DNA of 64,000 bases, taken from Lama guanicoe. Lineage: Eukaryota. Numbering within the stretch: position 1 is the stretch's first letter; each line of letters opens with the position of its first letter. Made by a program: the position numbers and the translations under genes. Under the pieces are notes generated by a model. The model saw nothing but the letters and a program-made list of their open reading frames with translations, searched no databases and was not told the DNA's origin. Shown here piece after piece: positions 15,470 to 64,000 of the stretch. The stretch spans positions 21,837,520-21,901,519 of the forward strand of contig MU055600.1 of NCBI GenBank assembly GCA_013239625.1, written 5' to 3'.

Positions 15470-16095
15470 AAGACACTGTGAGACACAGAATCCAGCTACT
15501 GCTTCTAGTATCTATACCAGAGGCTCCTNNNNNNNNNNNNNNNNNNNNNNNNNNNNNNNNNNNNNNNNNNNNNNNNNNNNNNNNNNNNNNNNNNNNNNNN
15601 NNNNNNNNNNNNNNNNNNNNNNNNNNNNNNNNNNNNNNNNNNNNNNNNNNNNNNNNNNNNNNNNNNNNNCAGCAACATGGATGCTCCCAGAGAATGTCAT
15701 TCTAAGTGAAGTAAGCCAGAAAGAGAAAGAAAAATACCGTATGATACCACTCATATGTGGAGTCTAAAAAAACACAAACAAAAACAACCAACAAACAAAG
15801 CATAAATACAAAACAGAAACAGACTCATAGACACAGAATACAAACTTGTGGTTGCCAAGGGGGTGGGGATTGGGAAGGGATAGATGGGATTTCAAAATTG
15901 TAGAATAGATAAACAAGATTATACTGTATAGCCCAGGGAGATATACACAAGATCTTATGGTAGCTCACAGAGAAAAAAATGTGACAATGAATATATATAT
16001 ATGTTCATGTATGACTGAAAAATTGTGCTCTACACTGGAATTTGACACAACATTGTAAAATGATTATAAATCAATAAAAAATGTTTAAAAAAAAG
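15470..16095 (+). mobile_element. Young camelid-type L1 3' end (contains N gap 15529-15669)
   Basis: 'cagcaacatggatgctcccagagaatgtcattctaagtgaagtaagccag...ggatttcaaaattgtagaatagataaacaagattatactg...aatcaataaaaaatgtttaaaaaaa' with poly(A). Confidence 0.92.
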
Positions 16096-41640: not shown

Positions 41641-42478
41641 GAGGGCCTGAGAGCCCCAAGGCACCGCGGGGTCTGAGTCAGGGAGGTCCTGGGGGAGGGT
41701 CCAGGGCACTGGGAAGAGTCAGAGCCTCCGACGGCGGGCTCCCACCCGGGTGACCAGGAGAACACTGAGACAGAGGGAGGGGTGGTTTGGGGGAAAATGG
41801 CACAGTCTGAGATGGAGGACATCTGACATGGTTCACAGCTTCCCATCAGCAACACCAATGTTCATTCAATAGCTGTTGATCCAGAGGGACAGCGAAGTCA
41901 GTAAGGCCCAGAAGCGAGCCCGCGGCAGCCCACAGTGACGGGTACCCCGTTCAGGGCCCGAGCTCAGTGCTCCGCAGGAAGGGTCCTTCTGACCCGACCT
42001 GTCACGTCTTCACTCAAAACCCAGGACATGTCTTACAATCACCCGGGAGCTTCAGAAACACCAGGACTCACCTCCTGAAAGATGTGTGCACGGGCGGCAG
42101 TGAGTGACGGTCCAGGCTCAGAAGGCGAGGGTCTCGGCTGAGCCTGGGTGGACCTTCCAGTTCTGTCGATGCCCTTTAGCCAGACCACCAGGAGGACACC
42201 CAGTGAAACCAGGCAAATGCACTCCTCACTGTGGAGGCGGAGAGCGCCCCCCGGGGGGCGTGGGGGTCAGGGGCGTGTTCTGCCCACAAGGAGGTCTCAG
42301 AAGGAACCCATCACAACACTGGAGCCTTGCTGGGAGCCCTGGGGGAGGGTCTCAGGAAGTGGGGGTCGCTCTGGATCCGGTGTCTTCAGAAAGCGGGGGC
42401 ACTTGCATTTCAGTCAATCCCACTTATTTCGGGGGAGACGAGCATGAAGACAAAGTTGAAACTGGTAAAGAAGTAGCA

Positions 42479-42703
42479 AAGGATAAACTGGGAGTTGGAG
42501 ATTTGCAGATACTACTGTACATAAGGCAGACAGTAAGTTGCTGTTGTAGAGCACGGGGAACTACATTCAGGCTCTTGTAAGAGTAATCTGTGATGGAGAA
42601 GAACGTGAGAAGGAATGTATGTTTGTATGCGTGTGCCTGAAACACGATGCTGCGCACCAGAAAGTGACACGACACTATAAACTGACTGTCCCTCAAGTAA
42701 AAA
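42479..42703 (+). mobile_element. Short camelid-type L1 3' UTR insertion with TSD
   Basis: 'ggataaactgggagttggagatttgcagatactac...caccagaaagtgacacgacactataaactgactgtccctcaagtaaaaaaa'; TSD core aagtagca at 42471-42478 and 42704-42711. Confidence 0.9.
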
Positions 42704-54502: not shown

Positions 54503-54680
54503 TTTTTTTTAACCTTTTTTTAAAATTGGGGCAGAGTCAGTTGACAACTGTGCCAATTTCTGGTGCACAGCACAGTGTTTCCATCATGCATACACACACA
54601 TGTGTTGCTTTTCATGTTCTTTTTCATTATAGGCCATTACAAGGAATTGAATACAGGTCCCTGTGCTGCACAGCAGGACT
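54503..54680 (-). mobile_element. Camelid-type L1 3' end
   Basis: Poly(T), then 'agtcagttgacaactgtgccaatttctggtgcacagc...ttttcattataggccattacaagg...gtccctgtgctgcacagcaggac'. Confidence 0.88.
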
Positions 54681-54807
54681 TCGTTTTTTTCTTGGAATGG
54701 AAGAGTGTTATTTATTTAGCATCTCAAGTCTCTGTTCTTCATTTTATATATTCACTAGAATGAAATGTACTGAACAACGTTCACGTGGCCTCTAATAGAT
54801 TTGCTTT

Positions 54808-54890
54808 TGGAAGGAAGCAAAATTGCACCGCCCCACAAATGCCCCTCTTTGGCATGAGGATAATTTGGGGTTGACTGTTTTTAAGAGACA
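54808..54890 (+). mobile_element. ERV1 LTR 5' stub (MER34/MER39-like)
   Basis: 'gccccacaaatgcccctctttggcatgaggataatttggggttga' resembles the MER34-type start CCCCAAAATATGCCACTTTGGCATAAGGATTATTTTGAGCTGA. Confidence 0.5.
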
Positions 54891-55027
54891 TACATACATA
54901 GTAGGCAGTATCTACAAACCCCGATCTCCCAGTTTACCCTCCCCAGCCCCTCGCTCCCCGGGTGGCCGTAAGTGTGTTTTCTGGGTGTGTGAGTCTCTGT
55001 TTCGTTCATGAGTTCGTTTGTGTCGCA
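54891..55027 (-). mobile_element. L1 3' UTR fragment
   Basis: 'gtatctacaaaccccgatctcccagtttaccctcccc...ggtggccgtaagtgtgttttctgggtgtgtgagtctctgtttc...gagttcgtttgtgtc'. Confidence 0.8.
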
Positions 55028-59659: not shown

Positions 59660-60008
59660 TCCGCCGGGGCCGCGGGAACCAAACACCACAGACCGGGTGG
59701 CTTAAACCGCAGGCCCTTATTCTCCCACGGCTGTAGGAGCTGGAAGTCCGAGATCAAGGTCCAGCCAGCGCGGGGTCTGCTGAGTTGAGCGCTCTCTCCC
59801 CAGCTTGCAGATGGCGGCCTTGACGCAAGCTTCCTCGGCGCCTGCAAGAGAGAGCTCACCGAAGCCTCTTCTCAAAAGTAGGCTGACCCTATCGGACCAG
59901 GGCCTCGCCCCGCAGCCTCGCTTAACCTTCATTACTTCCTTGTGCCAACCATGACCACACTGGTGCTGCAGCGTACGACTTTGTGGGGGCGACATTCAGT
60001 CCACAGCG
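59660..60008 (-). mobile_element. MLT1A-like solo LTR, GC-shifted
   Basis: 'aaacaccacagaccgggtggcttaaac...ttattctcccacggctgtaggagctggaagtccgagatcaagg...gcttgcagatggcggcc...gggggcgacattcagtccacagc'. Confidence 0.85.
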
Positions 60009-60687
60009 TTACCGTGCAGCGTGACAGCCCTGCGCCGGAGGGCCCTGAGGCACCCAACCCAGCCTGGATGCCGCGCGGCGAAGGGGCCACCGAGGGGGGG
60101 TCCTTTGACATGGCTTTTAAATCAGGTGCCTGCAGTCCTGACCCTGTGGGCTGCAAAACGCCCCTTCCCCTCTCCCCCCCGCTGTCTCTCTTATCTGCCT
60201 GTCTTTCGCTTTCCGTGATTTTCCTTGGCTTTTCGCACAGGGAGTACACAGGCGCGCTTCTGTTATAAGAGCCTGAAACAACACACGCAGGAGACTTCAC
60301 AGCGAAAGGTCAAGACCGCACGGCGCCCCCACACCCAGCTCCTCCGCCCTCGTCGCAGACAGATCCCCACCGGCAGACGGACCCGCACCGTCCGCCTGCG
60401 CCCCCTTGGGTCTGCGTGCGCGCGCACAGACATGGTTGTATGTGAGGCACGACGGACGTGCACACGACTCCCGTGTTTTCACATGGTCGGGGCCCTGCCG
60501 ATCGCGATGCTCCCCCCGCCGTGCGTCTGAGGACCGGCAGCGAGGAAGCCGGCAGGGCTCTCACACGCAGCCTCCGTCTAACGGCTCCAGACTGCAGGTT
60601 CCTCATGGTTTGTTTAACCTTCATCGCTGACGTTTCTGGCATGTCTAACTTTTTTGCTATCGAAAGCAAGGAAGCAGTGGCTCTTGC

Positions 60688-61170
60688 GTCAGTTATTTCT
60701 TGCTCCTAACACGTTCTCCCAAAACCTTGTGTCCTACAGCTGTGATGAGTATTTACCGTGGCTCAGTTTCTGCCGTCAGGAACTGGGGGGTGCCTGGCTG
60801 GAGGGCTCCCGGCTCAGGGGGTGCATTAGGCTGCGGTCAGGATGTTGGCTGGGGTTACAGTCACTGCAGTTTGACGCGGCTGGAGGGTCCACTCACTCCA
60901 GGGCTGGCAGGCGGGTGCGGGCTGCTGGTGGGAGCTTCAGCCGCCCCCGCGTGGCTCTCTCCGCAAGGCTGACGGAGTGTCCTCACGACACGGCGGCAGG
61001 CTTCCCCCGGCGTGACTGGTTCCCCAGGGCAAACAGAGGCACCAATGCCCTTTATGACCTGGCCGCAGAAGTCACAGGTCGTCACCTCTGCCTCATTCCG
61101 TCCATTAGCACAGAGTGAGCTGCTGGGCCAGACGCCGGGAGCGGGGTGAGGGGGACTGACCAGGAGCCCA
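60688..61170 (-). mobile_element. MLT1F-like LTR, GC-shifted
   Basis: 'gtcaggatgttggctggggttacagtcac...gagtgtcctcacgacacggcggcaggcttcccc...ctttatgacctggccgcagaagtcac'. Confidence 0.75.
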
Positions 61171-62842
61171 GCGCAGTCTGGGTGAACAGAACACACAGAG
61201 ATGAGACGCTGCCCCTGAGATCCTCCCACCACCCCGAAAGGACGTGTCCATCACCAGAAAGGCTCCTGTGGACACGCCCTGCCCGTCCTAAAGGCATTAC
61301 CGATGAACGGGGGAGGGGAGAGGAGGCTCCCGGAAGGAGACCGTGGGTGGCGCAGGTGCCCTCGGGGCTGGGCCAGGATGGAGAGCAAGCGTCAGCGCTG
61401 GAAGGCTGCGGCTCACGCATTTCTAAGCTGCTCTGGGCACGAGCAGGGAGGGGAGCGCGATGACCCGGGAGAAGGCGGCGGCAAACGGAGAAGCGTGTGG
61501 GCTCTGGGGCCAGTCCGCCGGCTGCCACGGCCCGTCCTGCCACGTCGCTCTGCTGACACGCAGATGCGTGCGAGCCCCGAGCAGCCCGCGGGCGGCGCGG
61601 GGACCCGGGGACTTGCCCCAGACAGCGGGGTGGGGAGCGCGGCGGCTGCTGCCACCACGGTGGGAAGTACCACGCAGGCGCCTGGACGCCGCGAAGACTC
61701 GGGGCTGCTGCGACTGAGGAGAGTCACAAAGGGAAGAGAGTCTCCAGGACCCCGGTTTCCTCCCTGAGACATCTTGTTCCCTCCCTGGTGATTCCCGCAC
61801 ACTTCGTGTTAACGCCCAGCCCAGAAAAACCGCAGCAGCCCTGCTTTCATAGAAGACCCTTCTCGCCGAGAAAAGGCGGACGTGGCTTTATGCGCTGACC
61901 TGTCACGTGTGCACTTCAGCGGGGGACACGCTGTGTTTGCCTGAAGCAGAGGGATGGAAGTCTGATGACGACGTTTCAGGCATCAGCCAAGCCGGGGGGG
62001 GGGGGGGCCCACTGGTGCTTCCCGGTGCTGCTGCCACCGTGACTCGAGGGAGCGGCCCACCTCCTCTCCTCTGCTCCCCCACTTCCCTCCCGGGCAGCCT
62101 GTCCTCCCCTTGCCCACGGCCACCTGAGTCCCTGACGATTCCGGGTGGGTGCGTTTCCACAGGCAGGTGTGCGTCCTGTTTAGTCACATTAAAAATAAAT
62201 CACTTGGCCACACAGACAGTACATCAATCTGCTACTTTCCTCTGCTTTCCAGGAACAGACGGTTCAAAAACACAGAAGTGCAAGCGGGCAAGGAGGGAGG
62301 GGGAGCGGACGGCGCCTTCCCAGCTGGCCTCCGACTTCCGTCCCGTCAGAGGTGGAATCGGTCACGCCGGCAGCTCACCAATACCTCAGCCTCGCGGGCC
62401 TCCAGCTGCGGGAGGAACGAGGTGTGGGGAGGACGGCGGCTCTGCGCCGGGCCCGGTGCAGGCTTTTGCACCTGGTGTTTCCCGAAGGGGATCAGGATCC
62501 TGGCCAGTTTCGCTTCCAGGGTCTCGTTTCTTCAGACTGGAAACCTCACATCATTCTCTAGTAACTCCCCAGAGTCCTGGGGTCAGACAGACCCAGCCCC
62601 ACCCCTGTGGGCAGGGGTCCTAACATCTCCGAGCCTCTGTCTTGGTCTCCACAACGAGGATGGGGGTCAGGGAGGAATAAGGTAACATATTTAAGACAAA
62701 TGGTAAAGCGCCGGGAGTCAGACGGGCACAAGGACGGACTGCACAGTATCGCGTAGTTACTGTAAACGGAGAGCAGTCTTTAAACTGGCATAAAGAAGTC
62801 AAAGTTTAAAGAAATGTAGGCAATATCAAGACAACAAATTCC

Positions 62843-62925
62843 GTGCTCGCTTCGGCAGCACATACACTAGAACTGGGACGACACGGCAATTAGCACGGCC
62901 TCGCGCAAAGATGACGCGCAAACTC
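62843..62925 (+). pseudogene. RNU6: U6 snRNA retropseudogene (U6 nt 1 to about 87), 5' half of a U6/L1 chimera
   Basis: gtgctcgcttcggcagcacatacactagaactgggacgacacgg...ttagcacggcctcgcgcaaagatgacgcgcaaactc aligns to U6 from nt 1; ACAGAGA box destroyed, no upstream PSE/TATA evident. Confidence 0.93.
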
Positions 62926-62929
62926 TTTC

Positions 62930-63175
62930 AAGTCTCAAAACAAACTTGCGGTTACCAGGGGGACGAGGCGGTGGGGAGGGGCGCACGGGGAGTCTGGGAT
63001 TGGCAGGTACTGAGCGCTACGTGTAAAACAGATACAAAGGTCCCTCCTGCCGTAGAGTGCAGGAACTCCATTCAGTATCTCGAATAACCTACAATGAAAA
63101 GGAGCTCAGCCTCCACTCTGTGCACCAGAAACTAACACAGCGTCGAAAATCGACGATGCTTCGATAAAAACCATA
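62930..63175 (+). mobile_element. L1 3' UTR fused directly behind U6
   Basis: 'aaaacaaacttgcggttaccaggggg...ctgtgcaccagaaactaacacagcgtcgaaaatcgacgatgcttcgataaaaa'; decayed TSD aagacaacaaattcc (62828-62842) / aagtcaacaaaacc (63193-63206). Confidence 0.88.
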
Positions 63176-63679
63176 AAGCTAGATCGAGAGAAAAGTCAAC
63201 AAAACCAGGCAGGGGCCTTGTTGATGGTGATTCCAACGTCCCGCCCTGGGGTGCGCGCACTCACGATCCTGTCGCTGTTCTTCCCGGTGCAACGTCCCAC
63301 CGAGAGGTCATACTCCTCACCTGCAAATTCACAACAAAAGAAGGCACCTCAGAGCGCCTGAAGAGGCGACTAAAACCAGACGGCGCTCAGCCTCTCCCCA
63401 CAGCACGCACACAAGCTCACCCTCCGAGAGACGTCCGTGACCTGCACAGGTTAGGGCGGCCGTGTTCCAGGAGCTGCGTGTGTGCTTGTGTTTCTCATTT
63501 TTGGCAAAATCGGTCTGAGGGGGAGAGATCTGAGTCTGCTGTAGGAATATTGAAAAATTTTGTAGAAATTTAGAAAACCAGAGCCTTGCCTGGACGAAGC
63601 GCTCTGTGGGGGCGCCTGCGGGGGCGCCTGCGGCCAGCTGGGCCCACAGTCACGCCTGCCTGGCGGGCATCCTCCACGT

Positions 63680-64000
63680 GGGCGCTGGGCTGCTCTGCAA
63701 CTCGCTCAGAGCAGCAGCATATGGCAGAAGCAACACCGGACCCGGGCCTTGAGAGGCGCTGGAAGCACACGCCTTTGGCCCTTGGGAGGCATTGAGCCAA
63801 CACGTGAGAAACGAGGTCTCCGTGCAGCAGGGACCGTCTGGAGAGGTCGTGAGATTACATGGGGGTGGGGAGACCCAGCTGCCCCAGCTGGTCCCAGACA
63901 CCCCGGCAGAGCGGCAGCCACGTGAGTGACCCAGCGTGGATATCCCAGCCCAGTCCAGCCCCCAGATGGCTGCAGCCCAGCTGGTGTCACGGGCCCCAGA
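63680..64000 (+). mobile_element. MLT1G/H/I-like LTR running off the window end
   Basis: 'catatggcagaagcaacac...cccgggccttgagagg...ccaacacgtgagaaac...gcagccacgtgagtgacccagc'. Confidence 0.55.

Follow-up and report, generated by a model that had tools for sequence, protein, structure and literature searches.

The window analyzed here is a 64,000-nucleotide stretch of the Lama guanicoe genome, located at 21.84–21.90 Mb on a 22.45-Mb scaffold. A dead U6/L1 chimeric retrocopy, 330 bases long, is found there roughly 550 kb short of a chromosome end: TTAGGG arrays close the scaffold at a distance of 553 kb. GLCE was recognized 49 kb ahead of the window start through matches to PDB entries. The terminal block presumably also includes KIF23, ANP32A, and ITGA11, labels assigned from motif hits, and telomeric repeats were seen ~70 kb beyond the ITGA11-like exon. 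The human counterpart of this gene block is interstitial, at 15q23. Should this synteny hold, the scaffold would stop at a chromosome end specific to this lineage, from which the GC shift described below could be dated. The literature search returned no printed camelid breakpoint at human 15q23 and no camelid chromosome end placed here, the accessible text of PMC9547437 and PMC6371769 included.

CpG o/e is mostly 0.15–0.4 in 10-kb samples from the scaffold interior, and 0.4–0.6 from ~19.5 Mb on. In the last 40 kb of the scaffold, it drops to 0.14–0.19, and the L1 bias vanishes beside the telomere. The element lies in a CpG-island-like stretch with CpG o/e of 0.62–0.84 over 3.5 kb versus the regional 0.4–0.6, where a strict island filter accepts a single 500-bp bin. 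No host gene exon emerged from a simple splice scan of the window. On the minus strand, a 56-nt stretch at 63271–63326 with a good acceptor and donor and open frames had no match in Pfam or the ESM Atlas; it may be a non-coding exon lying between NOX5 and GLCE, or may have arisen by chance.

The features are listed below, with W for A/T and S for G/C; fractions give changed sites among the ancestral sites of that class.

15804..16079, plus strand: L1 3′ end of a younger subfamily, the comparison copy in the first-pass annotation (5/180 W>S, 2/84 S>W)
42478..42696, plus strand: neighboring L1 3′ end (26/128 W>S, 8/58 S>W)
54535..55018, minus strand: neighboring L1 3′ end in two pieces (21/105 and 11/53 W>S; 5/41 and 2/36 S>W)
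60001..63500, no strand: CpG-island-like stretch around the element, 3.5 kb (500-bp bins: GC 0.53–0.66, CpG o/e 0.62–0.84)
62828..62838, plus strand: weak candidate 5′ target-site duplication (TSD), 10/11 identical to 63193–63203
62843..62925, plus strand: U6 snRNA retrocopy, U6 nt 1–87, with two small deletions (8 clean W>S, 1 clean S>W; five CpGs intact)
62926..62936, plus strand: U6/L1 junction patch of 11 nt, U6 3′ end and oligo-T absent (3′-truncated U6 or later deletion)
62937..63168, plus strand: 5′-truncated L1 3′ UTR of an older subfamily, in U6 orientation (37/123 W>S, 2/55 S>W; internal deletion near 63103)
63169..63192, plus strand: A-rich stretch past the L1 end, probably a decayed poly(A) tail
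63193..63203, plus strand: weak candidate 3′ TSD, pairing with 62828..62838

The U6 match starting at 62843 was obtained with Rfam RF00026 at 38.2 bits (E 6.8 × 10−8), below the gathering score of 44, and Rfam at the gathering threshold gave no match in the whole window. The U6 5′ end is joined to a 5′-truncated L1 on the same strand and followed by an A-rich tail and a candidate TSD, as in the U6/L1 chimeric retropseudogenes described in the accessible parts of Doucet et al. 2015 (PMC4476161) and Moldovan et al. 2019 (PMC6789731). The canonical chimeras in these sources have a full-length U6 ending in 4–7 T, whereas here no full-length U6 with oligo-T is present at the junction, the U6 alignment ends at about nt 87, and the TSD is a weak one, its 10/11 match score being equaled by 80 of 2000 random stretches of the window. 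The missing U6 3′ end may reflect a later deletion, and the element is thus a candidate for the canonical class. Elsewhere in this genome, U6/L1 chimeras are common: many young full-length U6 copies run straight into an L1 3′-UTR (at least 11 loci).

Direction of change within the element

The U6 reference is the 107-nt sequence common to 6 of 30 fetched genomic U6 copies, which are identical. Since U6 is invariant, the ancestor of this part is exactly known, which makes the copy a clean teaching example. Across the 77 clean columns of U6 nt 1–87, G/C replaced A/T at 8 of 40 sites (T23C, A28G, T31C, A35G, T40C, T57C, A78G, and T85C), and one of 37 G/C sites changed to A (G71A); U6 bases 1–22 carry zero changes. 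The first-pass annotation had counted 9 W>S against 1 S>W. The bias it described is real, but the numbers need correction. A43G was excluded, as it falls within the first indel patch and hinges on gap placement, and so was C62T, a second S>W change adjoining the second indel. The ratio is therefore 8:1 for clean columns and 9:2 at most. Taking composition as the expectation, 8 versus 1 has P 0.026; with the interior spectrum P is 0.001, and with the subtelomeric spectrum 0.05. Evidence from the U6 part alone is modest, and most of the signal lies in the L1 part. The CpGs at U6 positions 6, 11, 37, 66, and 79 are all preserved, in agreement with the earlier reading. In the 30 control U6 copies, CpG sites mutate 14 times faster than the rest (31 changes at 14 sites versus 14 at 90).

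For the L1 part, three subfamily consensuses were built from search hits (28, 15, and 30 copies). The focal L1 fits the older-subfamily consensus best (scores 212 versus 205 versus 97.5). The L1 at 16 kb, used previously as a stand-in for the ancestor, is a member of another, younger subfamily (it scores 514 with its own consensus versus 267 with that of the focal L1) and was replaced; the tail differences quoted at the time hold against the correct consensus, and the L1 tail is biased like U6. Against the 30-copy subfamily consensus, the focal L1 has 37/123 W>S, 2/55 S>W, 2 W>W, and 2 S>S, where the ancestral states are consensuses of similarity-picked copies from three subfamilies only and older copies assigned wrongly raise both W>S and S>W. 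W>S ranged from 29 to 44 and S>W from 0 to 4 across 24 alignment settings. At sites with two agreeing consensuses, one ambiguous patch being dropped, the counts are 20/94 W>S versus 1/42 S>W, and at non-CpG-prone sites 17/67 versus 1/32 (P 1 × 10−4 versus interior). A count of 33:4 from a mixed-subfamily multiple alignment was discarded due to two misaligned patches.

The whole element, scored against genomic U6 and the L1 subfamily consensus, has 45/163 W>S and 3/92 S>W. The S>W rate is below neutral, with P 3 × 10−4 at the interior rate and 0.013 at the terminal rate. GC-neutral changes (W>W plus S>S) number 4/178, or 2.2% versus 1.9% in the interior and 2.0% in the terminal region (P 0.78; few events and a wide error). 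Transversions comprise 6 W>S versus 0 S>W. The U6 and L1 halves agree (8/40 versus 37/123 W>S, P 0.31). A>G (22/100) and T>C (17/63) are strand-balanced (P 0.57), and these equal per-site rates bear out the argument, made from the presence of both changes on one strand, against ADAR editing. The bias is genuine, and stronger than the first-pass annotation had it.

The locus was compared with sequencing runs by shared words; lack of read support for these bases had been named as grounds for rejecting the claim. In 62300–63700, 24% of the 31-mers overlap a derived base. Among the runs listed (20 of 24; 7 studies, 5 organism labels), 0.80–0.92 of 147 sampled words were present. Shares this high without the derived bases have P 2 × 10−7 at 0.92, 0.012 at 0.84, and 0.12 at 0.80. 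As far as tested, this word sharing excludes an assembly artifact. Since the words are shared across five organism labels, it also suggests that most changes are older than the split of these organisms.

Regional extent of the bias

Identical scoring was applied to every L1 3′ end of the terminal 816 kb (43, with the focal one) and to those in 10-kb scaffold samples. Hits shorter than 100 or longer than 600 bp, hits with fewer than 70 scorable sites, and copies that had been search hits were left out of the controls, and young-subfamily copies were counted apart. The 37 older-subfamily copies besides the focal one in the terminal 816 kb have 586/4682 W>S and 218/2137 S>W, versus 158/2193 and 143/967 in 18 interior copies (P 3 × 10−10). 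Median GC* is 0.56 versus 0.33, while GC-neutral changes stand at 2.0% versus 1.9%. For MIR, non-CpG GC* is 0.67 in 179 terminal hits versus 0.47 in 125 control hits, with equal neutral classes (P 8 × 10−18). Young-subfamily L1 copies show no clear terminal/interior difference (40:14 versus 63:28, P 0.57), which counts against the regional reading. At one ancestral L1 site, CpG is retained in 3/15 terminal and 0/7 interior copies, which is uninformative.

The focal L1 departs from the interior copies with P 6 × 10−8 (W>S alone, P 5 × 10−13). A W>S/S>W ratio equal to the neutral value, which the first-pass annotation had regarded as fatal to its proposal, is contradicted by this comparison with scaffold-interior L1. 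Among the 38 terminal copies, the focal copy ranks first for W>S (0.30, next 0.23) and for GC* (0.89, next 0.83). Its difference from the region has P 0.001 in a pooled test and 0.054 with non-CpG sites only. Set against the between-copy spread, its tail P is ~0.01 per copy, and 0.19–0.35 as the maximum of 20–38 copies. L1 copies 8 and 20 kb from the element already have W>S near 0.20. The bias is thus regional over the terminal 816 kb, and milder there than in the focal copy, whose values lie within the upper tail of the regional spread. For the hotspot originally proposed, support is partial: the focal copy ranks first, but the bias extends across the terminal block.

Datable repeats close to the element are few within 8 kb, and a pile-up of other repeats near it gave too few multi-copy matches. 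Directly upstream, a MIR-like stretch at 62567–62790 has 16/51 W>S and 6/26 S>W, which is the regional level, on a weak alignment. Its forced alignment scored 84.5 versus 66 ± 7 for shuffles (maximum 92.6). The MIR profile missed it, and a genome search with it returned a self-match only; from its sequence, it is possibly a very decayed MIR.

Strong W>S excess was also observed in three further L1 3′ ends on contigs C371 and C4972 (23:5, 21:5, and 19:1 versus a mixed consensus). These loci were picked by similarity and are therefore biased, and they indicate that the pattern is not unique to the focal element.

Probable GC-biased gene conversion and competing explanations

The replacement of A/T by G/C is very probably the product of GC-biased gene conversion (gBGC) in a subtelomeric zone of presumably high meiotic recombination, for which the telomere 553 kb away is indirect evidence. 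Heteroduplex repair would prefer G/C at W/S mismatches, so that fixation would be sped up for new W>S alleles and slowed for S>W alleles, among them those of CpG decay. Raised W>S, lowered S>W, flat neutral classes, strand symmetry, and biased transversions match the expectation for a fixation bias; this combination is not expected from editing, hypermutation, or hypomethylation alone. Together with the real telomere adjoining the region, these observations support the gBGC interpretation offered earlier, in which fixation bias is told from mutation bias indirectly, through substitution counts.

The strength B was estimated as a single parameter with interior rates as the baseline, under a model as in the accessible part of PMC11161765. 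For the focal element, B is 3.7 (2.7–4.9), under which 40.5 W>S and 1.3 S>W changes are expected, versus 45 and 3 observed. For the region, B is 1.4 (1.2–1.6), which under-predicts the terminal set (346 + 103 expected, 404 + 141 seen). The two values, ~3.7 and ~1.4, would represent lifetime averages relative to the scaffold interior. One parameter covers both the G/C gain and CpG survival: the ten intact CpG bases have P 1 × 10−3 to 2 × 10−7 without bias, by assumed age, 0.04 to 8 × 10−4 at the regional B, and 0.2–0.5 at B 3.7. Intact CpGs indicate either a bias sustained for a large part of the element's existence or hypomethylation. Because S>W changes and CpG loss are both suppressed, the bias may have been active over much of that life, through recurrent hotspots or, conceivably, a stable one at the CpG-island-like stretch.

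The process is already known, and subtelomeric gBGC tracts are well described; the element is a new locus and not a new mechanism. According to the accessible part of Capra et al. 2013 (PMC3744432), tracts detected with phastBias cluster near telomeres in human and chimpanzee, and a clustered W>S excess near a chromosome end is likewise seen here. Those tracts have a model B of 2–10 and extend over a few hundred bases to kilobases, and the ~3.7 of the element is comparable. They were polarized on a terminal branch, whereas the changes here were polarized by repeat consensuses over the element's whole life, without defined tract ends. The runaway GC regions of gerbils, as presented in the part of Pracana et al. 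2020 (PMC7403616) consulted, share a region-scale AT>GC excess attributed to gBGC; all substitution classes are raised there, whereas at the present locus GC-conservative rates stay normal, and the effect is much weaker.

As a sharper form of the gBGC reading, a discrete and long-lived hotspot independent of PRDM9 may sit atop the regional effect, at the CpG-island-like stretch of 60.0–63.5 kb; this alternative is tentative, and its chances are clearly below even. The top rank of the focal copy among the 38, the agreement of the L1 part with a U6 part whose ancestor is exactly known, and the better fit of the ten intact CpG bases at B 3.7 than without bias all favor it. The accessible part of Joseph et al. 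2024 (PMC11161765) also describes PRDM9-independent hotspots as common in placentals and active in many mammals with intact PRDM9. The resemblance to those hotspots lies in raised GC* at a CpG-rich locus with PRDM9 seemingly kept; they rest on methylation, DSB, and orthologous-hotspot data, whereas the present locus is known from its sequence and no peak above its flanks was shown. The focal copy is not an outlier as a regional maximum, W>S is already high in the L1 copies 8 and 20 kb away, and the island character is limited to one bin under the strict filter, all of which weakens the case for a discrete hotspot. A PRDM9-like gene in this genome also speaks against it. This locus (contig C9322, ~4,264,800–4,277,500) has KRAB, SSXRD, and PR/SET exons and a short array of at least five near-identical zinc fingers, and the exons found are all in open frames. 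Camel, alpaca, and Vicugna are absent from the main text of PMC11161765 as far as accessible, and the literature search gave no paper on camelid PRDM9 and no camelid gBGC study among the matches listed. The data are compatible both with recurrent PRDM9 hotspots in a hot subtelomere and with a single stable PRDM9-independent one, as low S>W and intact CpGs fit either.

Local mutation bias or germline hypomethylation in place of conversion is improbable. Hypomethylation would account for the intact CpGs, and the element does lie in a CpG-rich stretch, but neither process can lift non-CpG W>S about fourfold (17/67 versus 95/1434) with W>W and S>S unchanged. It is also very unlikely that the counts reflect an assembly error, since most words are present in independent runs, or selection for a GC/CpG-rich regulatory element. 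The CpG-island-like surroundings, with the GLCE promoter on one side and NOX5 on the other, would suit such selection, but divergence is high, not low, and the bias spans unrelated repeats over 816 kb. Least credible of all is that the changes arose on RNA or in reverse transcription, through ADAR editing or an error-prone enzyme, or came from a GC-rich source element. Of all single changes, A>G is the most frequent (22), as editing would have it, but per-site T>C matches it, W>S transversions occur, the U6 and L1 halves are equally affected, and independent neighboring insertions are biased too. As for a GC-rich source, the closest L1 relatives found are merely 69–81% identical.

The gBGC reading may be extended by a speculative scenario, which we consider unlikely on present grounds. 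A gene block that is interstitial in human, at 15q23, would have turned into a chromosome end in the lineage studied, where, although PRDM9 looks intact, an orphan CpG island would have served over tens of millions of years as a stable PRDM9-independent hotspot with B 3–4; the decay of NOX5 may have gone along with this regime. If so, retrocopies with known ancestors such as U6 could serve as gauges for dating new telomeres. The locus would matter more if a multi-genome profile gave a stable narrow hotspot, or if the GC* rise could be tied to the birth of the telomere.

NOX5 beyond the element

Exons of NOX5 were observed 7–13 kb beyond the element, at ~69.7–76.3 kb in window coordinates (scaffold ~21,907,250–21,913,800), on the minus strand. 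The 5′ and middle exons match human NOX5 through PDB entries, and a homolog search with a NOX5 exon gave no match. One exon appears to shift frame ahead of its 3′ end; the second frame, which had no PDB match, is presumably also NOX5. Neither the terminal 816 kb nor a Pfam search of the scaffold yielded an FAD- or NADPH-binding motif. In the accessible part of the supplement of PMC10458973, a survey lists alpaca NOX5 as present. From these exons, the guanaco NOX5 looks like an eroded pseudogene, as yet unconfirmed, and an apparently broken NOX5 is maybe of more interest than the GC-biased element itself.
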